Of a stretch of DNA of 48,325 bases, positions 29,481 through 47,927 are shown in pieces. The notes below the pieces were generated by a model. It had not been told where the DNA came from, did not search any database, and was given only the letters and a program-made list of their open reading frames with translations. The stretch is from a virus (taxonomy: Duplodnaviria; Heunggongvirae; Uroviricota; Caudoviricetes). The stretch is from IMG/VR virus record IMGVR_UViG_2728369182_000007. The stretch is one strand, 5' to 3'. A program made the position numbers and the translations under genes. Numbering within the stretch: the first letter of the stretch is position 1; every line of letters begins with the position of its first letter.

Positions 29481-29488
29481 CAACAACA

Positions 29489-30310
29489 CTATCGCGTTAC
29501 CCTCTTTAACTGCCGCTCCGCCCATGCCTCTTCAATGTCAAACCGAACCACCAACGTATCGTAAAAGCGTTTCACTGATTTTTTCCACGTATCAAGCGTG
29601 ATAGCACTCGTCACTTTGCGTATGGCATTAAATGCCTCCGTTGATGGTAGTCTTTCATAGCCCCGACCGCCACAACGCTGGCAGTTCCTGATTACAGGCA
29701 TACCCCGTTTTTCCGACTCTTCACGATGAATGGCAACACCACGCCCACGGCAGTCTTTACAGGCAGTGGAAATCTCCCCCTTCCCTTTACATTCAGGACA
29801 AGAAACTTTCACCACCTCCCGGATTTTTTTCCATTCTTCCCAGTAAGACGGATACACACCTTTCGTACACTTTGCCCATACTGGCGGCTTGCCATCCGGA
29901 TACTGAACCTTGTTTGTAAAAACTTCGCTTTCAATAAATTTTTCCCCTCGGCAACAGGGGCACTGCTTTTTACTCGCTGCGCTGCGGGCATAATCCTCAA
30001 AAGCATACGAAGCCATAATGCGCATCACTGCCGGTTTTATTTCTGCCGGAAGTTTTCTTAACGCCGCCACGCGATCGCACTGACTTAATGCATAATCTGC
30101 CAGTAATTCTGTTGCCCGCGCCCTGTCATTCATACTAATACCCATTTTCCCCAGGAACGCAGAAAATCCCATCTCAGCCCGGTTTTGTGTCATACCCTGC
30201 GCAGCCATCACATCAGTGATGCTCAGCGCATCTTTTGACGTCGAGACGGATGCATCAGTCAGGCCTGGCGATTTTGGGGAATAGTATTTCGGTAAATCTT
30301 CCAGTCTCAT
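29489..30310 (-). CDS. late antiterminator Q-like protein
   Basis: 273 aa with multiple CxxC zinc-binding pairs, directly upstream of pR'/tR' and downstream of rusA as in DLP12/Qin prophages. Confidence 0.75.
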   Translation of the reverse strand: MRLEDLPKYYSPKSPGLTDASVSTSKDALSITDVMAAQGMTQNRAEMGFSAFLGKMGISMNDRARATELLADYALSQCDRVAALRKLPAEIKPAVMRIMASYAFEDYARSAASKKQCPCCRGEKFIESEVFTNKVQYPDGKPPVWAKCTKGVYPSYWEEWKKIREVVKVSCPECKGKGEISTACKDCRGRGVAIHREESEKRGMPVIRNCQRCGGRGYERLPSTEAFNAIRKVTSAITLDTWKKSVKRFYDTLVVRFDIEEAWAERQLKRVTR

Positions 30311-30684
30311 TTTTGGACCTGCCCGTCATGCATTATTTCGTAAATCTTCACGCCCAACCGACCACCAGGAACGAGCTGACCGCGCACAATATTGATTTCA
30401 TCAAACTGCTCGTCGTCTATAAGTAGTCCGGCATGCGTCAGCGCATCCAGTGGTGCTTTCAGGATATTGTCCAGGTCACGACGGCGCTTATCCGGTGGCT
30501 CTGCAATCACCTTTATCGCCAGCCTTCCGGACAGGTTTGATTTTAACCGCTGCCGGCGAACAATTAGCGCCACATCACGGCGATAACGCTCACCGACTTT
30601 TGATACAAAATATGTGTTGCCACGACGTCGCCAGTAAGTATTCACCGTCGGCGGATAAGGCAAAACAAACTCAATACGCATCAA
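30307..30684 (-). CDS. rusA: Holliday junction resolvase RusA
   Basis: 125 aa, MMRIEFVLPYPPTVNTYWRRRG... with conserved acidic residues; classic nin-region position. Confidence 0.85.
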   Translation of the reverse strand: MMRIEFVLPYPPTVNTYWRRRGNTYFVSKVGERYRRDVALIVRRQRLKSNLSGRLAIKVIAEPPDKRRRDLDNILKAPLDALTHAGLLIDDEQFDEINIVRGQLVPGGRLGVKIYEIMHDGQVQK

Positions 30685-30693
30685 TAACCTCTT

Positions 30694-31743
30694 TTACCCA
30701 AGCACGCCGGTTGCAAAGGCGTGATCAAGAAAACGAAAAATTAAATCAACCTGGGAACCATGCTTTTCTTCGAACGCCAGCGGATCCGCATGAAGTTCGT
30801 TGTGATGTTCCCGGCACAACGGTAGCGTGAAAATATCGTGGGCCTTTGTTCCCATCCCTCCCTGACCGTGACCAATCAGGTGATGGGGATCGTCGGCTGG
30901 CTGACCACAACACGCACACGGCTGTGTCTTCACCCAGCGCGTATATTTCTCATTTACCCAACGGCGACGTTTAGGTCGCCTCATGAAAGATTCCGGAGAG
31001 TCCGGATCAACGGCAATGCTGACCACCGCCTTTTCCAGTGGTGGGTTCTGTTGCTGGTGGAAGTGAGGCAACGGCGCAAGATTTTTTGTGCGCTGCTTTA
31101 GTATGCTGGTGGCGGTCTGCTCTCCCGGTACGATGTCGCTTTCGCGGTACACCGCGCGGATTTTTTCCGCACGTAACCCCAGAGAACGACGTAATACTGC
31201 CTCCGGAAGCGCGTCCGCCACTTGATTGCAGACCGCCCACCAGGATAATTCAGCCAGCGATAACTCCCGCTCCTGCGTGCCATTCATTGCATGGCGTATG
31301 ACGTCAATCATCCATGCTGCCAGGTTTTGTTGAGCAAGTTGCTCAAGTGATTCGGATGTCTGGTCACGCAGCTGGTTATCGCAGTGCCAGCACAACACCA
31401 TCGCGCCGGTGCCGTAACGATGTATGACGGTTTCACTGTGATGATAGTCACCATGAGGCCACTGGCAGGATTTGACATGACGCAACAGCCAGTCAGACAG
31501 TGCACCAGCGCCGCCAGCAGCACGAATCACACGCTCATTGCTGAAAAACCGCAGTAATGATTTATCCTCCGCCAGCGGCTGGCGAACGGCAGGGACGATG
31601 CCGGACGGCAGACCACGCATGCTTTTCGGTTCCGGCTCCACCAGCACTCGAGGGTTATGGAATACCTGCATGGATTCACGGCCTGGTTTAAGGACCACCA
31701 GCCCAAGTTCCGGTACCGGAACAGGTCGAAGTAATACCCGCAC
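30694..31743 (-). CDS. YdfU-like DUF968 protein
   Basis: 349 aa, C-terminal ...CACCGQPADDPHHLIGHGQGGMGTKAHD...PLCREHHNELH... motif; size and position match Qin ydfU. Confidence 0.75.
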   Translation of the reverse strand: MRVLLRPVPVPELGLVVLKPGRESMQVFHNPRVLVEPEPKSMRGLPSGIVPAVRQPLAEDKSLLRFFSNERVIRAAGGAGALSDWLLRHVKSCQWPHGDYHHSETVIHRYGTGAMVLCWHCDNQLRDQTSESLEQLAQQNLAAWMIDVIRHAMNGTQERELSLAELSWWAVCNQVADALPEAVLRRSLGLRAEKIRAVYRESDIVPGEQTATSILKQRTKNLAPLPHFHQQQNPPLEKAVVSIAVDPDSPESFMRRPKRRRWVNEKYTRWVKTQPCACCGQPADDPHHLIGHGQGGMGTKAHDIFTLPLCREHHNELHADPLAFEEKHGSQVDLIFRFLDHAFATGVLG

Positions 31744-31744
31744 G

Positions 31745-32020
31745 TTACCTCCAGATGCGTTGCTGGAATGTGCGGGACGGACGCGGTGGGCGCTCGGAGT
31801 ACGGCAGCCTGACGTAGATTATCCAGTGACGATAATCGAGGCTGAGGGCTTTCTTAACCTCGTATCCACGCCTGCGGTAACACTGAATTATCCATTCAGC
31901 CTGCTCTTCAGTGCATGGAGGATGCTGGAACCAGTCTGATTTGAATGCGTGAAAACGCCGTCCGCACCTGCTGGCAAAGACGGCAGAATCATTAGAATTG
32001 TGTAATTTGGTATCGTGCGC
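31745..32020 (-). CDS. hypothetical small protein (Rem-like position)
   Basis: Start placed at MAHDTKLH so the upstream terminator hairpin is outside the CDS; the six-frame ORF extends to 32152. Confidence 0.5.
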   Translation of the reverse strand, partial: AHDTKLHNSNDSAVFASRCGRRFHAFKSDWFQHPPCTEEQAEWIIQCYRRRGYEVKKALSLDYRHWIIYVRLPYSERPPRPSRTFQQRIWR

Positions 32021-32093
32021 CATCGGTTGTCTCTGCTGGCGCAGCAGGTGCCAGTTGTTCAGGCTGGCGTGCGAATTGTAAACCAGAATGCCA

Positions 32094-32121
32094 GGAAAAA
32101 ACAAAACCCGCCGAAGCGGGT
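32094..32121 (-). terminator. rho-independent terminator downstream of hok
   Basis: CCCGC-CGAA-GCGGG hairpin followed by TTTTGTTTTTT on minus strand. Confidence 0.6.
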
Positions 32122-32190
32122 TAAGTGCGGGTGCGTTGAGGATGCCTGACACATCAGAGGTGGCGAGGGATTTCTCCCCCGCCTGGTCTC

Positions 32191-32346
32191 TTACTCCTCA
32201 GGTTCGTAAGCTGTGAAGACAGCGACCTCCGTCTGGCCGGTTCGGATTCGTACCTCGCAGAGGTCTTTCCTCGTTACCAGTGCCGTCACTATGACGGTTA
32301 AACAGATGACGATCAGGGCGATTAACATCGCCTTTTGCTGCTTCAT
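32191..32346 (-). CDS. hok: Hok/Gef family type I toxin (HokD/RelF-like), 51 aa
   Basis: MKQQKAMLIALIVICLTVIVTALVTRKDLCEVRIRTGQTEVAVFTAYEPEE, Hok family signature with single TM and conserved Cys. Confidence 0.85.
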   Translation of the reverse strand: MKQQKAMLIALIVICLTVIVTALVTRKDLCEVRIRTGQTEVAVFTAYEPEE

Positions 32347-32583
32347 AGCCTGCTTCTCCTTGCCTTTCGGCACGTAAGAGGCTAACCTACATGTGTTCAG
32401 CATGGATTGAGCCTCAGATTAATGTTAAGCGTCTTGCAGGACGCGTAATGTTAACTGGGGCTTTTCTCTATCTGCCTTTTGGTGTTCATGCCTGAGGCAG
32501 ATAGCCTCAAGCACCCGCAGCAATTCTACTTAACTCACGTCACCTCGCCAATATGAAATCAATCAGAAAGGTGATCCATAAAA

Positions 32584-33270
32584 TCACTCCTTCTCTTCTT
32601 TTCCGTAGTGGAGTTGGCCAATTTTGATAAGAGGGCGCCCCTGAGATTTGCGGTGTAGATTGGTATCGCGCAGAGAATACACACAGCCACAATATTCCTG
32701 CTGATAGAATTTTTCGCGCTTGCTGATTTCAATCATACGGGACGAGCCGCCCTGCTTGCGCCAGTTATAATCCCAGTACACCATACCCGGATAATGCGCA
32801 ACAGCTCGCCGCCCACACTCGTTAACCTGCTGCATATTTTTCCAGCGTGAAATGCCCAGTGAACTGCTGATCACACTGAAACCATTTTCAGCAGCGTACA
32901 ACGCTGTCCGCTCAAAACGCATGTCAAAACACATGGTACAACGGATCCCCCTCTCAGGCTCCCATTCCATTCCTTTGGCACGTTCAAACCAGTTGTCGGT
33001 GTCGTAATCAGCATCGATAAACGGCACGCCGTGTTGTTCAGCAAAGCGAATATTTTCATCCTTACGAATTAAATACTCTTTCTGAGGATGAATGTTCGGG
33101 TTGTAGAAAAAGATGGTGTAGTCGATTCCCGAGGCCTGAAGCGCCTCCATCACTTCACCGGAACATGGAGCACAGCAAGAGTGCAGTAGTAGTTTGTTTG
33201 CCCCGTTTGGGAGCTCCAATTTAGGCCGTTTGAAATCAGCAATAGTCATAAATATTTTTATTGGGGTCAT
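32584..33270 (-). CDS. DUF208 / QueH-like protein (putative epoxyqueuosine reductase)
   Basis: 228 aa with N-terminal [14 protein letters not shown] motif and further conserved Cys ([16 protein letters not shown]); family assignment from memory. Confidence 0.5.
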
Positions 33271-33423
33271 GAAAATAGCACAGAGTGTAGCATCAGAGCA
33301 GGGCTATCGGGAATATATGTCTAAATCTGGTAATATCTGGTTTTGACGCAAAGCGGACAACCACGCTGGCTCTACCCTGCGCCATGAAAATGTCAATTCA
33401 CATCTGAACTAATGCTCTTTAAT

Positions 33424-33849
33424 CTAGTAACGTCTAAAATACCTAACATTTCCTTGATAAAATGCCAGTACACGCTGCATAGCTTCGCTCTTCCGGCACT
33501 CGCGACAGATTATATTCAGGCGCCTGTCGTAGCGGCGTATTTCGCCGTCTGGTAACGACCAGATAAGGTCCGGATCAACCGCAGATGGTTTATTCAGCTT
33601 TGCCCTTGAGAGCTTTTTACGGGCATTTTGCCAGTCCTTACGCGCCTGTTCAGACGGGAATAACCCGTAACCAGAGTTGTATACATCGCCACTGGCAACC
33701 AGCTCTCTGGCCAGAACGCTCATCAGATATCTTGTTGCCCCAGTTTTAGCTTCCAGTTGTCGTAACGTCTCGCGCCCACTCTGGCGTACGAGTTCAAGAA
33801 CCTGCCCTTTAATTTTTTCCCGCTCTTCTTGTGTAAAAACTTTTGCCAC
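33424..33849 (-). CDS. hypothetical protein (141 aa), repeated at 46191-46613
   Basis: ORF conserved in both nin regions. Confidence 0.5.
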   Translation of the reverse strand: MAKVFTQEEREKIKGQVLELVRQSGRETLRQLEAKTGATRYLMSVLARELVASGDVYNSGYGLFPSEQARKDWQNARKKLSRAKLNKPSAVDPDLIWSLPDGEIRRYDRRLNIICRECRKSEAMQRVLAFYQGNVRYFRRY

Positions 33850-33889
33850 AAGCCCTCCTGAAAATTACCTCATGACCAGAAATTAACAC

Positions 33890-34274
33890 TTACCCCCTGA
33901 AGCCCGGCGGAATTTCGTTATCCGGTTCAGAAATATGATTCACACAACGCTGGTTGTTCGTGCCGCTTACCGGGAGCAGCCAGGGGTTTTCAAAATTCCG
34001 GTCCGGTCCAAAAAACGTCGTCGCTCGCTGAACAAATTCCGTTCCCGTTTTCCCGGTAGCCGCCAGGTATCTTGCGTAACGCCTCACACCATCCAGCATG
34101 GCCTCTGGTGGCACCCCCTCGCGTAATCTGGCCTTCCAGGCACTGAAAGCGGATTTCTTCGGGTTTGCCCCAGCACGCAACGGGTATTCCCGCCAGACCT
34201 GTTCGAACACATCCGGATAATCCACTCGTCCCACAGGCTGCCCGGTGTTTTCCGGGACTACCCGATCGGCTTCC
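33890..34274 (-). CDS. C-terminal fragment of putative replication protein (copy of 46654-47040), truncated by gap
   Basis: Near-identical to the C-terminus of the 333-aa protein at 46654-47655; upstream end in N run. Confidence 0.5.
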
Positions 34275-34284
34275 NNNNNNNNNN
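34275..34284. other. assembly gap (10 N) joining nin-region fragment to a lysis cassette
   Basis: run of N; gene content either side is not contiguous in a phage. Confidence 1.
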
Positions 34285-34374
34285 CCCCGCACACTCGCGC
34301 AGAGGAGTCTCCCTGTCGGGCTGCGGTCTCTGTTAATGAGGGAATATAGCGACGATACGGCGCATCAACAAAAC

Positions 34375-34848
34375 TTATTTCAGGCACTGAGTGCGGATAT
34401 AGTCCTGTGCCCCTTCCAGTTGCTTGTGCATCGTCATCAGCCGCTCTCTGAGGGTGAAATAATCCCGTGTAACGGTGTCTGCCAGTTGGGGGCCGGTTGC
34501 ATTATCCACGCCGGAGGTGGTGGGGGCTTCACGCACGGAGCCTGGACAGGTGGCGTTGATCCGCAGGCGCTTACGACCAGCGGCAACGTCAGCGCGAAGA
34601 GTTTCATTTTCAGCTCTCGCATCGGCTAATTCCCTCGAGTATTTTGCATCGAGCGCAGCAACATCGCGCTGGCGCACCTGCATATCAGTAATGGTTGCGT
34701 TCGCCAGCTTCAGTTCACTGGCTTTGTTATCGCGCTGCGCTTTGTAGGTAATCGCGTTATCACGGTAATGGTCTGTTGCCATCCACAGCGCACCACAGGC
34801 CACCAGCAGAATAACGATAAACGCGGAAAGCATTCGGTTTATGTTCAC
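34375..34848 (-). CDS. Rz: i-spanin Rz (second lysis cassette)
   Basis: 157 aa, homologous to 26221-26700. Confidence 0.8.
34437..34622 (-). CDS. Rz1: o-spanin Rz1 (second lysis cassette)
   Basis: 61 aa lipoprotein with PPPPPAW motif embedded in Rz. Confidence 0.75.
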
Positions 34849-34976
34849 CCCAGCAACCCCGACGAAGACAACATCATCCAGGCCATGGAAAGAAAAAGAG
34901 CAACCAGCATTAGTGAAAATGAAATGCCGACAATTACACAGAGGATCTTCGCCAGCGTTATGAGTTTGTCTGACAT
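34845..34976 (-). CDS. small hydrophobic peptide (43 aa) between endolysin and Rz
   Basis: ATG at 34974-34976 preceded by AGGGAGGA RBS; [43 protein letters not shown]; stop overlaps Rz start. Confidence 0.45.
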
Positions 34977-34990
34977 GCTTAATCCTCCCT

Positions 34991-35137
34991 TCACGATTTC
35001 AACGCAATGACCAGTTTTGCCAGCCCATACAGCATCGGGGACACAGCAACACCGACCGCCACCCACTTAATGGCAAAAGCCAGTGCTCTGCTGATGTCAT
35101 CAGTTACAGGCGCTTTCAGTTCAAGGCCATTTTTCAT
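34991..35137 (-). CDS. small protein with C-terminal TM (about 48 aa) between endolysin and Rz
   Basis: ATG at 35135-35137 with GAGG RBS; alternative ATG at 35173; [48 protein letters not shown]. Confidence 0.35.
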
Positions 35138-35329
35138 AGTCAACCTCAACAGAATTCGTTTACACTTCGCCATGTTCTCCCTTGCCTTACTCAAGGTCAG
35201 AAACACAAAACCTCGCTTGGTGCCAACAAACGGGGTTTTTACTTTTATTCACTTACGTTTCGCCAGTTCGCAGGATTTCGTGTTATCCGCCCGCGTGGCC
35301 ATTCCTCATTTTTCAGCAAAATATTCTGC

Positions 35330-35863
35330 TTATCTGTCGATACCCCAGCACGCCAGCGCGCTCTCCTGGTCACGACGGGATACCTGACCGTAACAGTTGT
35401 TTGAACGAATACGGCAGTCTCTGCCACCGTCCTTAATCCACCAGCGAATCGCTTCGCAGGCACCTTTTCGATCACCAGCATTAATTCGTCTGTAAAACGT
35501 CGACGGGAAACACTTACCGGGACCAATGTTGTACGGACAGAATGACGCGATCCCCGCTTTCTGGGGTTCGGTCAGCGGCACTCTGATGTTTTTCTCCACC
35601 CACGCCAGCGCTTTATCACGCTCAATGGCGTTAACCTGGTCGCATTTTTCCTTCGACAACTTCATGCCCGGAACGACAGGTTTGCCATCCACCATGATGG
35701 CACCACGGCAGATGGTCCAGATACCTGCACCATCACGGTATGCCGTGGTGTGGTTGCCTTCCTTTTCATCCAGAAACTGGTCGAGAATGTCAGGCGCAGG
35801 CGCACCAGCGGCAATCAGCGCCAGAACGGCAGCCGACAGGCCGTATTTGATTTTGGTGTTCAT
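35330..35863 (-). CDS. R: SAR-endolysin (second copy)
   Basis: 177 aa, homologous to 26682-27215. Confidence 0.8.
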   Translation of the reverse strand: MNTKIKYGLSAAVLALIAAGAPAPDILDQFLDEKEGNHTTAYRDGAGIWTICRGAIMVDGKPVVPGMKLSKEKCDQVNAIERDKALAWVEKNIRVPLTEPQKAGIASFCPYNIGPGKCFPSTFYRRINAGDRKGACEAIRWWIKDGGRDCRIRSNNCYGQVSRRDQESALACWGIDR

Positions 35864-35899
35864 GGATATATTAAATATTCAGCCGCTGTCCCTGGCCCA

Positions 35900-36793
35900 C
35901 TAAATACGCACTTTAAGATAAGTCAGCCCCGGATGAAGCCAGTAAGCCGGCACTTTTTTAAAGGGTGGAGTATTAAAATCACGAAGAAGAGCCTCCCGCA
36001 CAATTGCATCCTTATCAGCACCACTGGCCAGCGCTTCAATCTCAGCGGCTACCTGAAGATATCCCATGCAACGGCCAACGCGCTTCATCAGCCCCTGCTT
36101 TTTATTGTTCTTCAGGTAATCAATGGCAAATTCAATGAGCTCCTCACTGTGCTGGTGCGATGGAGGTGTTACTTTCCCATTTTCTGAGATGGTTATTTTC
36201 CCAGCATCACCGGATACAACAAAGGATGGCCGGTTACACTCCCATTCCGGGTCACTGAAATTATCATTATGAATACTGAAACACTCTGCGAGATTTCTGC
36301 TCATCACTTTCCGACAATAATCGTCAAACGCAGCAAACTGCTTTTCATCGCCAGAAGGCACCAATATCGACCATTTCTTATTCAGCTCAACGACGTAGCT
36401 CTCCAGTTTTTCAATACGTGATTCAACATCATCTTTTTCTGACCGCAGTGTTGACGGCGGCATCTTCAGAGAACAAGTAATTCTTCCCGGTAGCTTTCCT
36501 TTGTAGGTTATCAACACATCCTGCGCCTCTAAAATTACGGGGCGCTTTTCCGGCAACGGTTCGTTCCATTCACATAACCCGGCAGCAACATCCATGAAAA
36601 ACTGCTTCGCCTGCTTTTTCGCCTCAGCTTCGTAAAACTCCAGCGTGGCACCTTCAGTACGGTCAAGACTAATCGCCACATCTGGCAACAACAGCGACGC
36701 TTGCCCGTCACCTTCCGACTTCACAGTAACAGTAACCTTATCCCCGTAATTATTTATCCCCTTAACAACCAGTTCATATTTTTTATTCATCAC
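35900..36793 (-). CDS. hypothetical protein (297 aa) between holin and endolysin
   Basis: N-terminal ~100 aa homologous to the 104-aa ORF at 27271-27585, plus ~190 aa extra C-terminal region. Confidence 0.55.
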   Translation of the reverse strand: MMNKKYELVVKGINNYGDKVTVTVKSEGDGQASLLLPDVAISLDRTEGATLEFYEAEAKKQAKQFFMDVAAGLCEWNEPLPEKRPVILEAQDVLITYKGKLPGRITCSLKMPPSTLRSEKDDVESRIEKLESYVVELNKKWSILVPSGDEKQFAAFDDYCRKVMSRNLAECFSIHNDNFSDPEWECNRPSFVVSGDAGKITISENGKVTPPSHQHSEELIEFAIDYLKNNKKQGLMKRVGRCMGYLQVAAEIEALASGADKDAIVREALLRDFNTPPFKKVPAYWLHPGLTYLKVRI

Positions 36794-37688: not shown

Positions 37689-39665
37689 TCATGCCGCGAT
37701 GTCCGCGTTGTTCACTTCCACCTTCACACTGTCAATCAGCAGCGTATATGTCGCCGCCTTTGATATGCCTGTCAGTTGCAGTTTGTCCGCCGCCCCTGAT
37801 GCCGGAGATTTCACCAGTGTGAACGGCGTCCCCCGTTTCTCATCCAGTACCGGCGTCACCTGAATGCTGTTGTTTCCGGCAAACTCAAAAGCCAGTGTGT
37901 GCCATCCGTTATCAAAGACCCCGAACGTTTCCAGCTTCGCATTCGGCTTCTTGTGGTGCATCGCGTTCAGGTTCGTCGCATCCGTCTGCAGAAAGAAGGA
38001 CATCAGCATGTCGTTGCCTTCCTCTGCCAGCGTCACTCCCTCCGGCAGGGACGACAACTGCCAGTAAATGCCCAGGGCAAACTGATTCGGCACCAGTGAA
38101 CCCGGCAACTTAAACCGTACGCTCACACGTCCCCCCTTCTTCAGTAACTCCACTCCCTGTCCGGCTGCATCATGCTCCAGAAACCAGATGTGGTTTTCCG
38201 GTTTATTCAGTTGCAGGGCCTTACCTCCCGTAGCCCCCGCATCACTGACCACCGCTTCAGCAATGTTTTTGTTAACATTGTCTCCGCTCGCCGGTTTGTG
38301 ATAATAGCGCCAGCCCTGTGATGCCAGGTCTTCGCCGGACGCCAGCAGACTCATCAGGGTTCGGTTACTGACCGGGGCTTCCGGCTCTCTCTCCGTACCT
38401 TCACCGGAAGGTCCGGTGGGCTTCACCGTATCAGGCTGTTTTCCGGTAATGAATTCAGCGTTTCTCCCGGCATGCACAAGAATCGCCGTTGCCAGACGGT
38501 CGGAAATAATCCCACGACGTGCCCATGATCCAAAATGCGTTTTACGGTCAGCCGTCGTCCAGGTTTTGGCGTCCGTTCGACCACCGGCTCCGTAATACCC
38601 AATATCCGCAACATCCGGATCTTCTGACGGCTCGTTGGTACCCACATTTCGCCCGTTTTCATCCGTCATAAACGGCACAAAGAAGATTTTTTTTGCGGAT
38701 TTCGTCTTGTATGCACCATACACCGCATCGTATTGCGAAGAATAAGTCTGCTTCCAGTAGTAGGTCGTGTCGCCACAAATCCAGGGAACCGATGACGGAG
38801 AGCCCCCGAGACACTGACCTCCGAATTCCGACAGGTCAGAACGATATTTTTCCACCATGGAATCAAACAGCCCCGGCTGGGTGGCGTATGCACCCTGTTT
38901 CAAATCAAACTCGCCCTGCATCCAGACCACTGCAAGCAGAATATTTTTAGGGTTGGCCTTCAGTGCGGCCTGAGTACGGGTAAGCAGGTCCTTGTACAGT
39001 GGCTTATCTACACCCCAGCGTGCCGAGGTCTCGCTTGCGCCGGTGGATTCGCTGAAGGTACCTTCATCGCCCGCCAAAAATGCAGAACCACCACGGCAGC
39101 ACGGAACCAGAAGAATACCGGCATTCGCCGGAATAAACGGCAACAATTTCTTCGCGATATGTAATCCCTGCCCCACGCATCCATACTGAGCTGCACTGGC
39201 TTTCGGGTGTGAAAACTTACTCAAATCCTGAACATCATGCAGGCAGTGGTCCGCAGGAATAATGTCATTGTAGTTACAGAACGCACCACCCGGCGTGACA
39301 GTGCTGCGACGCGCCAGCTGTTTAATACGCGGGTCCGGACGGTCATATGTCTCCGGCAGCGGAAGCCCTTCACCATACGCCATACCGTTTGACTGCCCGG
39401 CCAGGGCAACAACAAAGTAATACTCCGGGTTGCTGGTGGTGCTGATAACTGCGCCTTCTCCATCCGACGGCTTCACCACCACAGGTGTGGTGACATCACC
39501 TTCCGCCGCAATGGCCTGCATCAGGGTATAAGGCGTGATGGCCACCGGACTGCCAAATGGCTGCCACCCCTCCTTCAGTTTTTGTGTCAGTCGTTTCGCA
39601 AGGTCTGACGGCGATGCCGCCCTGACAACATCATAGTGTTTAAATGCCATGGTTCTTTCCACCAT
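37689..39665 (-). CDS. nanS-p: prophage sialate O-acetylesterase NanS-p-like (DUF1737 plus SGNH esterase)
   Basis: 658 aa; N-terminal MAFKHYDVVRAASPSDLAKRL... region and GQSNM esterase motif (…VALAGQSNGMAYG…); canonical position of this gene in Stx phages. Confidence 0.75.
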   Translation of the reverse strand: MVERTMAFKHYDVVRAASPSDLAKRLTQKLKEGWQPFGSPVAITPYTLMQAIAAEGDVTTPVVVKPSDGEGAVISTTSNPEYYFVVALAGQSNGMAYGEGLPLPETYDRPDPRIKQLARRSTVTPGGAFCNYNDIIPADHCLHDVQDLSKFSHPKASAAQYGCVGQGLHIAKKLLPFIPANAGILLVPCCRGGSAFLAGDEGTFSESTGASETSARWGVDKPLYKDLLTRTQAALKANPKNILLAVVWMQGEFDLKQGAYATQPGLFDSMVEKYRSDLSEFGGQCLGGSPSSVPWICGDTTYYWKQTYSSQYDAVYGAYKTKSAKKIFFVPFMTDENGRNVGTNEPSEDPDVADIGYYGAGGRTDAKTWTTADRKTHFGSWARRGIISDRLATAILVHAGRNAEFITGKQPDTVKPTGPSGEGTEREPEAPVSNRTLMSLLASGEDLASQGWRYYHKPASGDNVNKNIAEAVVSDAGATGGKALQLNKPENHIWFLEHDAAGQGVELLKKGGRVSVRFKLPGSLVPNQFALGIYWQLSSLPEGVTLAEEGNDMLMSFFLQTDATNLNAMHHKKPNAKLETFGVFDNGWHTLAFEFAGNNSIQVTPVLDEKRGTPFTLVKSPASGAADKLQLTGISKAATYTLLIDSVKVEVNNADIAA

Positions 39666-39910
39666 CTGAAAAATAATTCTTTAAAATACCTGACATGTAA
39701 TACAGAAAAAACACAAAACCATACCTTAAATAAAAACCTCATCATCAAGCAGATATGCATGGATAAACTACAAGACGAGATATAAACCACCCTGCATTTA
39801 AATAAACAATAAACAACATCAGAAAAATAATTCTGCTCTATGGTTTACATTCAAAAATATCATTTATACTTTTCAGAACATCACCAGCAAGACATAAACA
39901 AGGAAACTAA

Positions 39911-40246
39911 ATGAAGTGGATTGTGATTGATACAGTTATCCAGCCATCATGCGGAATATCTTTTTCAGTCATATGGAGTAAAATAAAATTAATAATCTGG
40001 TATCAATCGGATGCTTTCTTACCTCCTGAAAGTATATTTACACTGACTCACACAGGTATCATGCTCAATAACAAAGTGCTACCTGTAACCATTTACAACG
40101 TAGCACCATTCAATAAAACATTCTGGAATTTAATCAAAAACAGCCAGGAATGTCCTACAAATACAGATAACGTATTGAATGAATGCTTTAATAACCGTTG
40201 CACTCTGCAAATATGTCCTTATGGACTAAAACAACAAAGTCCATAA
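39911..40246 (+). CDS. hypothetical Cys-containing protein (111 aa), only convincing plus-strand gene
   Basis: AAGGA RBS 7 nt upstream of ATG; AT-rich; convergent with surrounding minus-strand genes. Confidence 0.4.
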
Positions 40247-40272
40247 GGAGTTTACTCACATCTGACAAAATC

Positions 40273-40294
40273 AATATAAACAGCCCCTCCGGAG
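40273..40294 (-). terminator. rho-independent terminator (minus strand)
   Basis: CAGCCCCTC-CGGAG-AGGGGCTG hairpin followed by TTTATATTGATTTT on minus strand. Confidence 0.55.
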
Positions 40295-40693
40295 AGGGGC
40301 TGGAGAGTGGCGCTATGTGCCATTGCATGGTGCCGGGTGCCTCCCGGTGAATTCAGTACCAGCACCTGAATCCGCGATTATCCCATATACCTACTCGCTG
40401 ATTGCCCCTCCGCACAGGGGGATTCACCATGCCAGTTTCTTTTAACAAACTCCCCGCAAACCAGACAACAGTCAACCGCCTGAATTGTGAAGTATTTAAA
40501 AATTTCTCCCGCTAACTGATACCCGGCTAACAGTCTGGCGTTTTCTTTTTCAGCAACGGGAAAGCAACAACCACCACACCCGCCACCAGCACACCGTCAG
40601 CCAGCACTGACATTATCCGGCTGCTGCAATGCCACTCACAAAAACAGTAAGCAATCACTTTTTACCGTAACAAGTGATAATCCAGATATGTAT

Positions 40694-41047
40694 CTACCCC
40701 AGATGAGTAATCCGAAGTTCATCCATACCACAGGTACTGGCTATTCTGTTGTACTCCTGAACAAGAGCAAATAATTCTGAATTAGCAACCATGAACTCAT
40801 CGCAAACCCTCTGTATAGCATCACTATTCAGAATAATAACGTCTCTTCCCGAAAGACGATCAGGAGTACAGAACAAAACTGTCAAACGGCTGAAGGCCTT
40901 TGCTCGTCCTGCATTGACTATATCAATACGCTGCCTAAGGATGAAACACCCCGACGCCTCATCAATATTCACTCTACCCACACCATATGAATGATAAATA
41001 TTTAATGCTGAAAAAACCATTAGACCGTATAACAAACACTCAATCAA
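40694..41047 (-). CDS. hypothetical protein (117 aa) in stx-equivalent position
   Basis: AT-rich ORF directly downstream of tRNA-Arg; no similarity to Stx subunits by eye. Confidence 0.4.
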   Translation of the reverse strand: MIECLLYGLMVFSALNIYHSYGVGRVNIDEASGCFILRQRIDIVNAGRAKAFSRLTVLFCTPDRLSGRDVIILNSDAIQRVCDEFMVANSELFALVQEYNRIASTCGMDELRITHLG

Positions 41048-41160
41048 TACTTAACAGAACTTTTATTTTTGACAAACATAAAATATTTTCAACAATATCC
41101 TGAGCCAGGTATATTTCAGTATAAGGCTCTGCCGGAAGGAATCTGGAAGAATGAATATAG

Positions 41161-41234
41161 CGCGCTGTACTGGATTCGAACCAGTGACCGATTGCTTAGA
41201 AGGCAATTGCTCTGTCCGGCTGAGCTAACAACGC
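41161..41234 (-). tRNA. tRNA-Arg (anticodon UCU), CCA not encoded
   Basis: Manual fold: acceptor GCGTTGT/ACAGCGC, anticodon stem ATTGC/GCAAT, loop CUUCUAA, T-arm CACTGG-TTCGAAT-CCAGT. Confidence 0.7.
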
Positions 41235-41334: not shown

Positions 41335-41410
41335 TGGTGGCCCTTGCTGGATTTGAACCAGCGACCTGGCGATTATGAGTCGCTCGCTCTCACCACTGAG
41401 CTAAAGGGCC
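41335..41410 (-). tRNA. ileZ: tRNA-Ile2 (anticodon CAU), second copy
   Basis: Identical or near-identical to 28332-28407. Confidence 0.75.
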
Positions 41411-41449
41411 GGGAGCAGAATAATAACGGTCCGTAATTAATTCCGCAAT

Positions 41450-41472
41450 AAAAAACCCGCTCGGCGGCGGGT
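41450..41472 (-). terminator. late terminator tR' downstream of second Q
   Basis: CCCGC-TCGGCG-GCGGG hairpin plus T6 on minus strand. Confidence 0.6.
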
Positions 41473-41553
41473 TGTAGAAACTCTTCTAACGTCAGGCATA
41501 AAAAGCCCATTATTATGACGAATTTACCACAGATTCCGGAAAAATCAACCTTG

Positions 41554-42375
41554 TTACCTAGTTACCTTTTTTAACTGCCGCTCAGCCCATGCTTCTTCAA
41601 TATCAAACCGGGTCACCAGCGCATCATAGAATTTCTTAACTGTTTTTTCCCATGACGCGCGTGTTATCTGGTTTGTCACCTCGCATATAGCATTAAATGC
41701 CTCCGTTGATGGTAGTCTTTCATAGCCACGACCACCACAACGCTGGCAGTCTCTGATAACAGGCATACCACGTTTTACCGACTCTTCACGATGAATGGCG
41801 ACACCACGCCCACGGCAATCCTTACAGGCGGTGGAAACCTCACCCTTTCCGCCACACTCCGGACAGGCAACTTTTACCACCTCCCTGACTTTTTTCCATT
41901 CTTCCCAGTAAGACGAATACACACCTTTCGTACACTTTGCCCATACCGGCGGCTTACCATCCGGATACTGGACCTTGTTTGTAAAAACTACGCTTTCAAT
42001 AAATTTTTCCCCATAGCAACAAGGGCACTGCTTTTTACTCGCTGCGCTGCGGGCATAATCCTCAAAAGCGTACGAAGCCATAATGCGCATCACTACCGGT
42101 TTTATTTCTGCCGGAAGTTTTCTCAACGCCGCCACACGATCGCACCGACTGAGTGCATAATCTGCCAGTAATTCTGTTGCCCGCGCCCTGTCATTCATAC
42201 TGATGCCCATTTTCCCCAGGAACGCAGAAAAACCCATCTCAGCCCGATTCTGTGTCATGCCCTGCGCGGCCATCACATCAGTGATACTCAGCGCATCTTT
42301 TGACGTTGAGGCCGATGCATCGGTCAGGCCAGGGGATTTTGGGGAGTAGTATTTCGGTAAATCTTCCAGTTTCAT
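41554..42375 (-). CDS. late antiterminator Q-like protein (second copy)
   Basis: 273 aa, ~95 percent identical to 29489-30310 by eye. Confidence 0.75.
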   Translation of the reverse strand: MKLEDLPKYYSPKSPGLTDASASTSKDALSITDVMAAQGMTQNRAEMGFSAFLGKMGISMNDRARATELLADYALSRCDRVAALRKLPAEIKPVVMRIMASYAFEDYARSAASKKQCPCCYGEKFIESVVFTNKVQYPDGKPPVWAKCTKGVYSSYWEEWKKVREVVKVACPECGGKGEVSTACKDCRGRGVAIHREESVKRGMPVIRDCQRCGGRGYERLPSTEAFNAICEVTNQITRASWEKTVKKFYDALVTRFDIEEAWAERQLKKVTR

Positions 42376-42389
42376 TTTTTGACCTGCTC

Positions 42390-42752
42390 TTAATGCATTA
42401 TGGGGTAAATCTTCACCCCCAGACGTCCACCAGATACTGGCTGACCACGAACGATATTGATTTCATCAAACTGCTCATCGTCCATTAACACTCCCGCATG
42501 CGTCAGCGCATCCAGCGGTGCTTTCAGGATATTGTCCAGGTCGCGACGACGCTTATCCGGTGGCTCTGCAATCACCTTTATCGCCAGCCTTCCGGACAGG
42601 TTTAATTTCAGCCGCTGCTGGCGAACAATTAGCGCCACATCACGGCGATAACGCTTTCCGGCCTCCGAGATGAAATACGTATTGCCATGACGTCGCCAGT
42701 AGGTATTCACCGTCGGCGGGTAAGGCAAAACAAATTCTATGCGTTCAGTCAT
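42390..42752 (-). CDS. rusA: Holliday junction resolvase RusA (second copy)
   Basis: 120 aa, homologous to 30307-30684. Confidence 0.85.
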   Translation of the reverse strand: MTERIEFVLPYPPTVNTYWRRHGNTYFISEAGKRYRRDVALIVRQQRLKLNLSGRLAIKVIAEPPDKRRRDLDNILKAPLDALTHAGVLMDDEQFDEINIVRGQPVSGGRLGVKIYPIMH

Positions 42753-43813
42753 TCATGCTTTCCACTTCAGGACACCCGAATTTCTCGCGTGCATTAAAAA
42801 ACGAATCAGCAACAACAGCTGGCTGCCGTGTTTTTCTTCAAAATCTTTTACCCCGGCGTGCAGTTCGTTATGACATTTACGGCACAGCGGAATAACAAAC
42901 AAATCATCAGCCTTTGTTCCCATACCTCCCAGGCCATGATCAATGATGTGATGCGGATCATCTGCCTGATTACCGCACGTCATGCATTTCTGCGTTTTTA
43001 CCCAGCGCGTGTATACAGGCATCTCTTCCCGTTGTGGTTTCTGGCGCTGGAGATACTGAGCCGGAGACTCCGGATCAACGGCGATGCTTACTAACGTCTT
43101 TTCCTGGAGTGGGGGCTGTTGCTGGTGGACGTGAAGTGGCAGCGCAATATTTTTTGTGCGCTGCTTCAGTATGCTGGTGGCAGTCTGTTCTCCCGGTACG
43201 ATGTCACTCTCACGGTATACGGAGCGGATTTTTTCCACCGGTAATCCCAGTGAACGACACAATACAGACTCCGGAAGCGCATCAGCCACCTGATTGCAGA
43301 CCGCCCACCAGGATAATTCGGCCAGCGATAACTCCCTCTCCTGCGTACCGCTGATTGCGTGACGGATGACGTCAATCATCCATGCTGACAAGTTTTGGTG
43401 AGCAAGTTGCTCAAGTGATTCTGAGGTCTGGTCACACAACTGGTTGTCGCAGTGCCAGCACAACACCATTGCGCCGGTACCATAACGGTGAATGACGGTT
43501 TCACTGTGGTGATAATCACCGTGTGGCCACTGGCAGGATTTAATATGGCGCAACAGCCAGTCAGACAGTGCACCAGCGCCGCCAGCAGCACGAATCACAC
43601 GCTCATTGNNNNNNNNNNTGGCAGTAATGATTTATCCTCCGCCAGCGGCTGGCGAACGGCAGGGACGACTCCGGATGGCAGGCCGCACATGCTTTTCGGT
43701 TCCGGCTCCACCAGCACTCGAGGATTATGAAATATCTGTATGGATTCACGGCCCGGCTTAAGGACCACCAGCCCAAGCTCAGGCACCAGAACAGGTCTAA
43801 GTAATACCCGCAC
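42753..43813 (-). CDS. YdfU-like DUF968 protein (second copy, contains 10-N gap)
   Basis: Homologous to 30694-31743 on both sides of the gap. Confidence 0.7.
43609..43618. other. assembly gap (10 N)
   Basis: run of N. Confidence 1.
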
Positions 43814-43814
43814 G

Positions 43815-44087
43815 TTACCTCCAGATCCGTTGCTGGAAAGTGCGGGACGGACGTGGTGGGCGTTCGGAATAAGGCAGCCTGACAGAGATTATCCAGTGCC
43901 GATAGTCGAGACTGAGAGCTTTCTTAACCTCGAACCCGCGCCTGCGGTAAGAATGAATCAGCCATTCGGCCTGTTCTTCAGTACATGGTGGGTGTTGGTA
44001 CCAGTCGGTTTTAAATGCGTGTGAACGCCGCTCATGCCGGATGGCAAGGTCGGTATCAGAATTGTGAAATTTGGTTTTGTGCGCCAT
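43815..44087 (-). CDS. hypothetical small protein (Rem-like position), second copy
   Basis: 90 aa, homologous to 31745-32020. Confidence 0.5.
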   Translation of the reverse strand: MAHKTKFHNSDTDLAIRHERRSHAFKTDWYQHPPCTEEQAEWLIHSYRRRGFEVKKALSLDYRHWIISVRLPYSERPPRPSRTFQQRIWR

Positions 44088-44160
44088 CTGTTTTCTCTGC
44101 TGGCGCAGCAGGTGTCAGGTGTTCAGGCTGACGTGCGAATTGTAAACCAGAATGCCAGGA

Positions 44161-44190
44161 AAAAACAAAACCCGCCGAAGCGGGTTAAGT
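44161..44190 (-). terminator. rho-independent terminator downstream of hok (second copy)
   Basis: Same hairpin and U-tract as 32094-32121. Confidence 0.6.
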
Positions 44191-44254
44191 GCGGGTGCGT
44201 TGAGGATGCCTGACACATCAGAGGTGGCGAGGGATTTCTCCCCCGCCTGGTCTC

Positions 44255-44410
44255 TTACTCCTCAGGTTCGTAAGCTGTGAAGACAGCGACCTCCGTCTGG
44301 CCGGTTCGGATTCGTACCTCGCAGAGGTCTTTCCTCGTTACCAGTGCCGTCACTATGACGGTTAAACAGATGACGATCAGGGCGATTAACATCGCCTTTT
44401 GCTGCTTCAT
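44255..44410 (-). CDS. hok: Hok/Gef family type I toxin (second copy)
   Basis: Nucleotide sequence identical to the hok CDS at 32191-32346 over the compared stretch; ATG at 44408-44410. Confidence 0.8.
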   Translation of the reverse strand: MKQQKAMLIALIVICLTVIVTALVTRKDLCEVRIRTGQTEVAVFTAYEPEE

Positions 44411-44668
44411 AGCCTGCTTCTCCTTGACCTTTCGGTCCGTAAGAGGCTAATCTCTATGTGTCGCATAGATATGGCCTCAGATTAATGTTAAGCGTCTTGC
44501 AGGACGCGTAATGTTAACTGGGGCTTTTCTCTATCTGCCTTTTGGTGTTCATGCCTGAGACAGATAGCCTCAAGCACCCGCAGTCATTCTACTTAACTAA
44601 GATTTCCCCGCAAACCGTTTTTGTCCGGCACAGTAAATATCCAACTAAACCAATGGCGTTCGCTGTAT

Positions 44669-44848
44669 TTACCGCCAGTATTCAATGCACATGACCGCCA
44701 TGAACACCCCTAAAAAAAGGGCATTTATATATCCAAATATTAATATCAAAACATCAACTTTTTCCATATACCTTGCTGTGAAGATGATGGGCATACATGA
44801 TACGAACAACCAGAACGCAACAAACAAAAACTGCAATGCGTTTTTCAT
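44669..44848 (-). CDS. small two-TM membrane protein (59 aa), AT-rich
   Basis: ATG at 44846-44848 preceded by AGGAGG; MKNALQFLFVAFWLFVSCMPIIFTARYMEKVDVLILIFGYINALFLGVFMAVMCIEYWR. Confidence 0.5.
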   Translation of the reverse strand: MKNALQFLFVAFWLFVSCMPIIFTARYMEKVDVLILIFGYINALFLGVFMAVMCIEYWR

Positions 44849-45077
44849 TATTCCTCCTACAATCAATGTGCAATTACATTTAAACACACCTCAGTTTGGC
44901 CGGACATATAAATATCTAAACCAGAAAAAATCACTTACATAGCGTTACAAACTCTTTAGTCTAAATATTCATCGTAAAACATTCCCCATACTTATCAGCC
45001 CGTTCTGCGCCAGGTAGCTCATTGCCTTATCTGGGAATCTGTAATCAGGTTTCCGGATGCTGGTGGATTTTCGCGTT

Positions 45078-45335
45078 TTAGTTGTTCATAAAAGTGCACA
45101 GCTTTAACCAGTTCTTCTGATGTAACCGGGACTGGCGAGGCAGTGAATAAGGCCTGAATTTCATAGTTCGGCCTGTCGTTACAATCCTCTTTTTTCGGTA
45201 CATATTTCCAGTCACCAGACCACTACTTCCCCTGAAAGTCCGTAACGCCTTTTTTTTCACGTAGCGATATCGCCATGCCACTGTTTTTGCTTGCCCCGCC
45301 GTTTCATGCCCTTCCTGATAATTAACCTCGCTCAT
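45078..45335 (-). CDS. hypothetical basic protein (85 aa)
   Basis: ORF only; weak support. Confidence 0.25.
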   Translation of the reverse strand: MSEVNYQEGHETAGQAKTVAWRYRYVKKKALRTFRGSSGLVTGNMYRKKRIVTTGRTMKFRPYSLPRQSRLHQKNWLKLCTFMNN

Positions 45336-45341
45336 TCATCG

Positions 45342-45508
45342 CCCCACTCATCACAATATGCTTCGACCGGAGTTTTTCCTGCTTCATAATCATCACGCCA
45401 TGCTTCAGCATCAGCAGCACTGCCACCACGTAACTCTGCATAGTCCATTAACAGTTCATGCCATTCTTCAAAACTGACGTTGTATTTAGTTGAACCAAAA
45501 TCAGCCAT
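45342..45508 (-). CDS. hypothetical small acidic protein (55 aa)
   Basis: ATG at 45506-45508 overlapping stop of upstream ORF; MADFGSTKYNVSFEEWHELLMDYAELRGG... Confidence 0.35.
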
Positions 45509-45683
45509 TTTGTTCTTCCTCTTTGTCTTTTATTTCGTGATATGAGTAATTGCAGTAGTTAAAGAAAATATCTTTTGCTTCGTCATGTATTTCATCAGGC
45601 GTCGCATCATCATCCACTTCGAATTCATCCTCGAAATCTCCACCGGCTATTCCCGTTTCAATAATTATTTTAAACTTTCGCAT
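45501..45683 (-). CDS. hypothetical small acidic protein (60 aa)
   Basis: ORF MRKFKIIIETGIAGGDFEDEFEVDDDATPDEIHDEAKDIFFNYCNYSYHEIKDKEEEQNG. Confidence 0.35.
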   Translation of the reverse strand: MRKFKIIIETGIAGGDFEDEFEVDDDATPDEIHDEAKDIFFNYCNYSYHEIKDKEEEQNG

Positions 45684-45776
45684 TTAACTACCGCCCTTTC
45701 GGGCGGCCTCCTGATGTTCTGAGGGTGCAGAAATCCCTCCGGTTAAGGATTAAATTTTTAACAGAGCTAAATTTAA

Positions 45777-46133
45777 TTATTCAGTTCTGGATTTTGTCGC
45801 CCTGCGTATCCGCGCTTTCGCGTTACGCTCAATCTGAATTAGCTTTTCTATATTTTTTCGCCTTTCCCGCTCCTCCTGACGCAAGAGCCTTACATCATCT
45901 GCCAGTCTGGTTTCTCTTTTCGCCACAGAGAGCATCCAGTCAAATGGCTCCACAACTGCACCGCAGATTTTACAGCGGACCTGACGCTCTTTTTCGTCAA
46001 CCCGGACAGAGGCGTGATGACAATATGGTCTTTCCGATGGCTCATAAAGAAAATTAACCTGATTACGAGGGTCATCCTCTTTTACCGGAAATAAAACGAT
46101 ATTGCTTAACTCATCCTCTGGTTTTATTTCCAT
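45777..46133 (-). CDS. hypothetical protein with Cys/His cluster (about 118 aa)
   Basis: Start placed at MEIKPEDELSN...; CHH...CKICG motif suggests a zinc ribbon. Confidence 0.4.
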   Translation of the reverse strand: MEIKPEDELSNIVLFPVKEDDPRNQVNFLYEPSERPYCHHASVRVDEKERQVRCKICGAVVEPFDWMLSVAKRETRLADDVRLLRQEERERRKNIEKLIQIERNAKARIRRATKSRTE

Positions 46134-46190
46134 GCTCCTCTCCTTTGATGCGAATGCCAGCGGTAATTGAAGCCTGATAGCTAATTTCAC

Positions 46191-46613
46191 TCACAGTACC
46201 GCCTCCTGAAAATTACCCTGATAGAAAGCCAGTACACGCTGCATAGCTTCACTCTTCCGGCACTCGCGACAGATTATGTTTAGGCGACTGTCGTAGCGAC
46301 GTATTTCTCCGTCAGGTAACGACCAGATAAGGTCCGGATCAACCACAACCGGTTTCTTCAGCTTTGCCCTCGATAATTTTTTGCGGGCATTTTGCCAGTC
46401 TTTACGAGCCTGTTCAGACGGGAATAACCCGTAGCCAGAATTGTATACATCGCCACTGGCAACCAGCTCTCTGGCCAGAACGCTCATCAGATATCTTGTT
46501 GCCCCAGTTTTAGCTTCCAGTTGTCGTAACGTCTCGCGCCCACTCTGGCGTACGAGTTCAAGAACCTGCCCTTTAATTTTTTCCCGCTCTTCTTGTGTAA
46601 AAACTTTTGCCAC
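46191..46613 (-). CDS. hypothetical protein (140 aa), copy of 33424-33849
   Basis: Near-identical ORF. Confidence 0.5.
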   Translation of the reverse strand: MAKVFTQEEREKIKGQVLELVRQSGRETLRQLEAKTGATRYLMSVLARELVASGDVYNSGYGLFPSEQARKDWQNARKKLSRAKLKKPVVVDPDLIWSLPDGEIRRYDSRLNIICRECRKSEAMQRVLAFYQGNFQEAVL

Positions 46614-46653
46614 AAGCCCTCCTGAAAATTACCTCATGACCAGAAATTAACAC

Positions 46654-47927
46654 TTACCCCCTGAAGCCCGGCGGAATTTCGTTATCCGGTTCAGAAATAT
46701 GATTCACACAACGCTGGTTGTTCGTGCCGCTTACCGGGAGCAGCCAGGGGTTTTCAAAATTCCGGTCCGGTCCAAAAAACGTCGTCGCTCGCTGAACAAA
46801 TTCCGTTCCCGTTTTCCCGGTAGCCGCAAGGTATCTTGCGTAACGCCTCACGCCATCCAGCATGGCCTCTGGTGGCACCCCCTCGCGTAATCTGGCTTTC
46901 CAGGCACTGAAAGCGGATTTCTTCGGGTTTGCCCCGGCACGCAACGGGTATTCCCGCCAGACCTGTTCGAACACATCAGGATAATCCACTCGTCCCACAG
47001 GCTGCCCGGTGTTTTCCGGGACTACCCGATCGGCTTCCCGCTGAATGGCGGAATCGGCTTCAGGCTGCTGAAGTTGGTGTGATTGCTCCTGCCTTGCGGT
47101 CATCACCTGCTGCACAGCGCCCGAATCGGCTTTCAGCGCATACGCTGAATCGGCTTCCGGTGTCGTGCCTGCTGGCTGACCAAGATTGACGGTCTGAACA
47201 TCCCCTGCCTGGTTCGTGGCGTTTTTTACGCCATGGACCATAGTGTNNNNNNNNNNGGGCTGGCCAGGAGTGACGGTCTGAACATCCCCTGCCTGGTTCG
47301 TGGCGTTTTTTACGCCATGGACCATAGTGTTTTGATCTTCTTGATCTGTATCTTTATCTGTATCTTTATCTGTCGTGACTCGTCGTGACATGTGCGTGAC
47401 ATTTCGTGACGCGCCGTGACAATCGCCATTTTGTTCCCGCTTTCTTTCCCTCTCTCGCTGCGCCCTCTTGCGCTCTGCAGGAGATTTTGCGGTTTGCGAA
47501 ATATTGCCGTTGTCCTCTTTAAGCACCTGGCGTTTTTCCCATCCAGTGATTAAATCACCATCAAGTACCCGCCCCTGCATCNNNNNNNNNNCGGAGATTT
47601 TGCGGTTTGCGAAATATTGCCGTTGTCCTCTTTCAGCACCTGGCGTTTTTCCCATCCAGTGATTAAATCACCATCAAGTACCCGCCCCTGCATCGTCTGC
47701 AAAATTGAATCAATTACCTCTTCTGTCACGTCGAGCGCACTTGCCAAATCTTCTGTCGTGACATCAATGTGACCTCGCGTGACATTTCGTGACGCGCTCA
47801 CCAGGAGGTGGATATACACTGCCATCACTGTTGCAATTGGCTGCCCTGACACCCTGGCAATTGTTCGCCACTTAGGGTCATTTGGCATGTCATGCCATAA
47901 TCTGAGCCAGGCGTTAGCCATACTCAC
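46654..47927 (-). CDS. putative phage replication initiator / replisome organiser (split by two 10-N gaps)
   Basis: N-terminal MSMANAWLRLWHDMPNDPKWRTIARVSG... region; internal iteron arrays; gaps at 47247-47256 and 47582-47591 are flanked by duplicated sequence. Confidence 0.4.
47247..47256. other. assembly gap (10 N) flanked by direct duplicate of about 50 bp
   Basis: run of N; ctgaacatcccctgcctggttcgtggcgttttttacgccatggaccatagtgt present on both sides. Confidence 1.
47373..47420. repeat. iteron-like array: five CGTGAC motifs phased at 10 bp
   Basis: tCGTGACtcgtCGTGACatgtgCGTGACatttCGTGACgcgcCGTGAC; preceded by tandem tctttatctgta repeat at 47345-47372. Confidence 0.6.
47582..47591. other. 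assembly gap (10 N) flanked by direct duplicate of about 110 bp
   Basis: 47468-47581 repeats 47592-47705 almost exactly. Confidence 1.
47756..47792. repeat. second iteron-like array: four (C)GTGAC motifs phased at 10 bp
   Basis: tCGTGACatcaatGTGACctcgCGTGACatttCGTGAC plus inverted GTCACG at 47726-47731. Confidence 0.55.

Follow-up and report, generated by a model that had tools for sequence, protein, structure and literature searches.

A plus-strand gene opposing the late operon

The DNA analysed here, hereafter the window, is a stretch of 48,325 nt from a Caudoviricetes record (IMGVR_UViG_2728369182_000007). As the first-pass annotation had pointed out, nearly all of its coding sequence lies on the minus strand: in the identical stretch of MCJCHV-1, RefSeq places on the plus strand one gene, iraL, and a few tiny or partial ORFs. 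This gene occupies positions 39911-40246 (+) and runs cleanly from ATG to TAA, encoding an RssB anti-adaptor of the IraM family with 111 amino acids. An AAGGA ribosome-binding site (39900-39904) stands 6 nt before the start codon. Both the ORF and its ribosome-binding site had been read correctly from the letters, as had the C-terminal peptide quoted at the time; the protein contains five cysteines, however, at positions 14, 81, 92, 97 and 102, and not seven.

The first late gene downstream of the iraL cassette is a NanS-p-like esterase of the late operon (37689 to about 39650, minus strand), with DUF1737, SASA and DUF6645 domains (PF08410, PF03629 and PF20350; phrog_143) and a RefSeq start at the MAFK ATG. 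Its ORF (37689-39665) is intact in the window and frameshifted in the MCJCHV-1 annotation. On the other side of iraL, beyond a small RNA gene described below, the minus strand carries a DUF3927/TciB-like ORF (40527-40658; phrog_1470, RefSeq DUF3927) and the gene of a 117-aa phage protein (40694-41047; phrog_2873, E = 7e-70), both in the slot held by stx in Stx phages. They are followed, on the same strand, by two phage tRNA genes (41160-41234 and 41335-41410; ARAGORN, Rfam) and by the late antiterminator gene Q (41554-42375; Pfam PF03589, E = 6e-55). Just downstream of Q, the terminator scan finds a terminator-like hairpin at 41454-41473 (-), which from its position is a candidate tR'. In the identical MCJCHV-1 stretch, the 117-aa ORF has no RefSeq annotation. 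ARAGORN reads the tRNAs at 41335-41410 (-) and 28332-28407 (-) as tRNA-Met (CAT); RefSeq calls the former tRNA-Ile, which fits a lysidine-modified tRNA-Ile2 as in Stx-type phages.

Taken as a whole, the window is pieced together from two segments of lambdoid prophage (26230-34770 and 41448-47038), with a junction near 34285. It holds a second Q/RusA/DUF968/hok-sok module (29383-32535) that is 86% identical to 41448-44598. A piece of the replication region is repeated as well (33442-34274 and 46205-47038, 96% identity), as is an Rz-type lysis gene. Four tRNA genes (Gly, Thr, Lys, Met/Ile) are clustered at 28098-28407, downstream of the second Q gene. Each prophage module also has a hok/sok type I toxin-antitoxin locus, recognised by its sok antitoxin RNA (RF01794; 32341-32516 and 44408-44579, both on the minus strand; 120 and 107 bits, respectively), and hokD is annotated at the matching MCJCHV-1 position. 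Tail and tail-fibre genes are duplicated within 4136-13658, where 4136-5994 resembles 6005-7865 (92-96%) and 7869-10255 resembles 11312-13658 (90-96%). Among 5,426 complete E. coli genomes, none extends across 32500-36500, and the best matches stop at ~34285; the junction reflects either an uncommon recombinant or tandem prophage, or a join made in assembly.

Identification of the gene as iraL

The protein matches the NCBIfam model of IraM (NF007393) over positions 1-113 of 114, with 162.4 bits against a cut-off of 121 (E = 3.7e-48). A sequence search of the PDB returns a single match, IraM in the IraM-RssB crystal 8twd (E = 2.2e-32); together, the two matches exclude a chance ORF. Phage protein family phrog_4407 of PHROGs also covers IraL end to end (E = 4e-73) under the label 'unknown function', so that phage annotations overlook a host-stress regulator. 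Pfam hmmscan gives no match to IraL, even at E <= 10, though a precomputed table assigns PF11183 to IraL homologues.

The closest characterised relative is IraL of the uropathogenic E. coli strain CFT073. The two proteins are identical at 110 of 111 residues, the sole change being V65A (valine in CFT073, alanine in the window), and the coding sequences differ at 3 of 336 nt (~99% identity). This lies well within the iraL allele group, for which at least 95% identity to CFT073 iraL across the whole coding region is required (PMC4045071). The location agrees as well, in a lambdoid prophage of the potB island type and not beside e14; CFT073 and MCJCHV-1 share the gene order Q, tRNAs, DUF3927, iraL (on the opposite strand), esterase and holin. 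The 741-bp segment 39680-40420 is present at full length in 1428 of 5426 complete E. coli genomes (megablast), where the gene is annotated 'anti-adapter protein IraM', and the iraL segment occurs in four sequenced Escherichia phages at 98% identity.

That name, used by both RefSeq and NCBIfam, would suit iraM proper, controlled by PhoP/PhoQ and induced by Mg2+ starvation as in K-12, and the MCJCHV-1 prophage does lie a few kb from phoPQ, by chromosomal coincidence. The window protein is, however, 63% identical to K-12 IraM (b1160) against 99% to IraL. The regions upstream of iraL and K-12 iraM have no alignable homology, the similarity being confined to the coding region; the absence of a common upstream region would agree with the published view that the two are differently regulated and form non-overlapping groups (PMC4045071). 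It is thus extremely unlikely that the gene is iraM itself. Because of its 99% identity to IraL, and because the similarity to K-12 iraM ends at the coding borders, we are highly confident that the plus-strand ORF is iraL, a prophage-borne paralogue of iraM carried on an AT-rich moron that opposes the late operon of a lambdoid prophage.

Promoter and leader of iraL

The iraL promoter is found at 39844-39870 (+), with a -35 element read either as TTTACA (39844-39849) or as GGTTTA (39842-39847) and the -10 element TATACT (39865-39870). The -35/-10 region is identical to that of CFT073, in which growing lysogens transcribe iraL from its own σ70-type promoter and the predicted elements resemble the σ70 consensus (PMC4045071). 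The published 5' RACE sequence of iraL, ACATCACCAGCAAGGCATAAACAAGGAAACCA (PMC4045071), matches positions 39878-39909 at 30 of 32 bases. On this match we place the transcription start at 39878: by homology to the start mapped in CFT073, the transcript would begin there and carry a 33-nt 5' UTR (39878-39910) that includes the AAGGA site.

From -100 to +33, window and CFT073 differ by three substitutions, one directly upstream of the start site and two in the UTR. With so few differences and with the RACE sequence present, the region falls within the iraL group also by its upstream definition, namely at least 96% identity to the CFT073 promoter and upstream region together with the RACE start sequence. 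A consensus promoter scan proposed 39803-39831 and 39962-39989 and missed the actual promoter; its proposals were left unused because their rate was no better than in shuffled sequences.

The copy could nonetheless be silent or decaying, as a gene of a prophage remnant: the surrounding prophage looks rearranged, frameshifts or truncations affect adjacent genes in other strains, and strain JJ1886 has a second iraL copy with a point mutation in its -35 element (PMC4045071). The intact ORF, the promoter elements shared with the functional CFT073 promoter, the single amino-acid change and the recurrence of the identical 741-bp segment in many genomes all speak against decay, which we judge very unlikely.

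The downstream hairpin and STnc100

Converging on iraL is a gene for the PasD-related sRNA STnc100, which runs from 40461 to 40272 on the minus strand. The Rfam model RF02076 matches it over its full length (1-206), scoring 132.4 bits where the gathering score is 47. Small RNAs of this kind, STnc100 and the related PasD, are known from prophages, where they frequently neighbour esterase genes (bioRxiv 10.64898/2026.05.13.724894). RefSeq also annotates, at 40317-40442 (+), a partial 'hypothetical protein' that lies wholly inside the opposite-strand STnc100; this entry is probably an artefact.

The 3' terminal stem-loop of STnc100 is an intrinsic-terminator hairpin at 40281-40302 (-), recognised in the cmscan alignment and by the terminator scan, the latter on the minus strand only. 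Its sequence, CAGCCCCTCCGGAGAGGGGCTG, forms 9 bp, 7 of them G-C, with a folding energy of -20.8 kcal/mol (z = -4.1 against shuffles), and a U-rich tail, UUUAUAUUGAUUUU, follows it on the minus strand only. In the cmscan alignment the hairpin is the last stem of the STnc100 model, followed by UUUAUAUUG, so that the full-length match includes both the terminator stem-loop and the U-tract. The strong minus-strand terminator reported by the first-pass annotation is borne out. Its geometry needs correction: the gap from the iraL stop codon is 34 nt instead of 27 bp, and the hairpin runs to 40302, past the former limit of 40294.

The same annotation had ascribed to the hairpin an insulating role. 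As a dedicated, bidirectional terminator or insulator of the iraL cassette, guarding it against antisense late transcription, the hairpin would be well placed, being so close to the stop codon. Its palindrome also folds in the plus-strand RNA (-19.0 kcal/mol), and iraL has no other terminator candidate: a scan to 41600 finds no plus-strand intrinsic terminator within 1.3 kb downstream of the gene. Yet no U-tract follows the stem on the plus strand, a complete STnc100 match ends in this very hairpin, and the hairpin is kept in phages without iraL, which means that it pre-dates the cassette. In lambdoid phages, moreover, Q-modified RNA polymerase reads through intrinsic terminators during late transcription, so that after induction the hairpin would leave iraL exposed to antisense transcripts of the late operon. 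We consider a dedicated insulator rather unlikely. Judged by its sequence and conservation, the hairpin is the STnc100 terminator, an already known element of the phage backbone. What stands of the insulation claim is that, in the lysogen, the hairpin can end minus-strand transcription by ordinary, unmodified polymerase, such as that of STnc100 itself; what does not stand is protection in the late phase.

The hairpin is also a possible 3' end of iraL. Since the gene has no terminator of its own, its mRNA would most likely end at, or be stabilised by, this same palindrome. In a weaker reading, likewise prompted by the missing terminator, the iraL mRNA would run antisense into STnc100, and the two convergent transcripts could regulate each other.

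An AT-rich cassette in an sRNA slot

The iraL moron cassette measures ~620 bp (39656-40275, plus strand) and fills the space from the start codon of the esterase gene to the terminator of STnc100. Its GC content is 32.1%, whereas the window averages 51.4% and the esterase gene 54.7%, and it aligns with CFT073 DNA along its entire length at 98% identity. When aligned with Stx1 phage 75/02 and PhiR5_1, the window shares their backbone to a few nucleotides past the ATG of the esterase gene and from ~40276 onwards (the phage matches begin at query position 597, i.e. window position 40276). Between these borders the sequences of the two phages are unrelated to that of the window. Because the alignment resumes from ~40276, we assign the hairpin and STnc100 to the backbone.

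The cassette is thus extra DNA between backbone genes, absent from related phages and of deviant composition, as expected of a moron in what is reportedly the sense of Juhala et al. 2000. Morons may be looked at for a promoter and a terminator of their own: here the promoter is assigned by homology to CFT073, and no terminator lies within the cassette, only the adjacent STnc100 hairpin.

In Stx1 phage 75/02, the equivalent slot is occupied by the sRNA AgvB (RF02702), which lies on the same anti-late strand and ends in a separate terminator directly next to the STnc100 hairpin. The stx1AB genes lie just upstream of this convergent sRNA slot, in the interval equivalent to window positions 40527-41047. 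AgvB is located in Shigella phage 75/02 Stx at 3885-3944 (+) of the compared stretch and scores 56.6 bits, the gathering score being 56; the slot of PhiR5_1 (~3780-3990 of the compared stretch) has a related terminator-bearing element, below threshold. In the phages without iraL, the slot from the esterase ATG to the STnc100 hairpin is taken by an anti-late sRNA that brings a CGGGCTTTTTTT terminator of its own. No AgvB or AsxR remnants are found in the window.

Tree et al. 2014 (PMC4104026) described arrangements of this type, at the PR' moron site in lambdoid prophages, as a 'convergent sRNA pair'. In the window, iraL substitutes for one partner of such a pair. Its presence in exactly the slot of AgvB means that the slot accepts protein cargo besides sRNA cargo.

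Predicted fold and function of IraL

An AF2 model of IraL, computed with 48 family members, has a mean pLDDT of 86, and above 90 across residues 1-78; it replaces an earlier run with 16 close homologues (pLDDT 56), which was uninformative for the tail. Foldseek superposes the model on 8twd_A with an rmsd of 1.2 Å across 77 columns and a target-normalised TM-score of 0.90, and the next structural matches are PmrD structures. Residues 1-78 of the model form a PmrD-like antiparallel β-barrel with an α-helix. The homology and structure checks called for at the outset have thus returned iraL, as an intact ORF whose model fits 8twd_A, and no pseudogene fragment.

[quoted passage not shown] Of the 14 IraM residues that contact RssB (clusters I-III, PMC10844676), ten are identical in IraL and four are replaced conservatively (T13S, H63N, I64V and L75I). 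The details of the crystal structure may still fail to transfer to IraL.

The biology of iraL is already characterised, as a prophage gene that stabilises RpoS by blocking RssB; the window adds another carrier strain. Binding to RssB and the half-life of RpoS were studied in CFT073 and S. sonnei. Deletion of iraL in CFT073 lowers RpoS in log phase and shortens its half-life from ~5 to ~2.5 min (PMC4045071). [quoted passage not shown] In CFT073, a fur mutation raises the level of IraL.

The present analysis provides the identity, fold and context of iraL and the borders of its cassette; promoter activity, RssB binding and RpoS stabilisation would carry over from published work on the CFT073 allele, which is 99% identical. 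On this analogy, host σ70 RNA polymerase would transcribe iraL in the lysogen from the gene's own promoter, starting at ~39878. The resulting 111-aa protein, predicted to consist of the β-barrel and helix (residues 1-78) and then a tail with four cysteines, would bind the ClpXP adaptor RssB and prevent the delivery of RpoS to ClpXP. RpoS and the general stress response would then be up already in growing cells. In growing uropathogenic E. coli and Shigella, IraL raises RpoS, which is thought to aid niche adaptation.

The first-pass annotation had proposed an opposite-strand moron expressed in lysogeny, for fitness or for defence. Its first half holds, as the CFT073 literature describes a stress-regulation gene of benefit to the host; no defence-system match accompanies the second. 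A role in anti-phage defence or superinfection exclusion would be in keeping with the position and orientation, which are typical of prophage accessory genes, and with the uninformative label of phrog_4407, but a specific alternative function with experimental support exists, and we give a defence role next to no credence. A defence gene was also rejected as a candidate by PADLOC, with 0 families at E <= 0.01.

A conserved four-cysteine tail

The last third of the protein carries the motif C81-x10-C92-x4-C97-x4-C102(P), encoded at 40151-40216 (+) and conserved in the family alignment. A word-indexed search for homologues retrieves Escherichia relatives only; an exhaustive profile search yields 94 representatives, ~45 of them full length. 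The family is named IraM in Salmonella, Citrobacter, Enterobacter, Kosakonia, Klebsiella and Cronobacter, and is unnamed in Franconibacter and others.

We aligned 44 family sequences, from Escherichia and the seven genera just named, reaching down to ~20% identity. Only three columns are invariant (44/44): W72, C81 and C97. Residues C92, C102 and P103 are each present in 43 of the 44, and C14 is not conserved. The four C-terminal cysteines also occur in K-12 IraM. In the 48-sequence AF2 run, the pLDDT of the tail is 57-75, not below 50. For the IraM structure, residues 79-107 had been removed, the tail being considered less conserved, proteolytically unstable and predicted to be flexible (PMC10844676). 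Set against that description, the near-invariant conservation of the four cysteines is possibly a new point. The 36-aa cysteine tail alone gives nothing significant against PDB sequences (best E 0.6), and a search of the literature library on IraM with cysteine or zinc found no statement on the tail cysteines.

We tentatively raise the possibility that the tail of IraL and IraM is a conserved functional module rather than a dispensable flexible end; the cysteines of its motif C-x10-C-x4/5-C-x4-C-P are, along with W72, the best-conserved positions of the family alignment. Such conservation reasonably fits a Cys4 metal-binding (zinc) or redox-sensitive knuckle, which could tune the stability or the activity of the anti-adaptor. 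If this is true, the four-cysteine tail would be a metal or redox input into the control of RpoS proteolysis.

Comparison with known systems

CFT073 IraL (Hryckowian et al. 2014, PMC4045071) resembles the window gene in its protein, promoter, 5' UTR and lambdoid-prophage neighbours. The esterase downstream of iraL is truncated to a DUF1737 stub in CFT073, whereas it is intact in the window, and the prophage differs to the left of ~34285.

K-12 IraM shares with IraL the family, the fold, the largely conserved RssB-contact residues and the four C-terminal cysteines. Its gene sits next to e14, in contrast, and has an unrelated promoter region. According to the literature, IraM is induced by PhoP and contacts both domains of RssB, while IraL acts in log phase; IraL also has four more C-terminal residues.

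PmrD (PDB 4hn7, 2jso and 2rqx) has the same β-barrel and helix as residues 1-78 of IraL, a likeness also noted for IraM (PMC10844676), and both proteins are small and bind a protein of the response-regulator type. The two are only 13-20% identical; PmrD has no four-cysteine tail, and its target is PmrA, not RssB.

The AgvB/AsxR pairs (PMC4104026), finally, are comparable in their site, a slot between the moron CDS region and a conserved esterase ORF, in their anti-late orientation and in having STnc100 as partner. AgvB and AsxR are anti-sRNAs of 51-60 nt, whereas the anti-late partner in the window, iraL, lacks a terminator of its own and encodes a protein.
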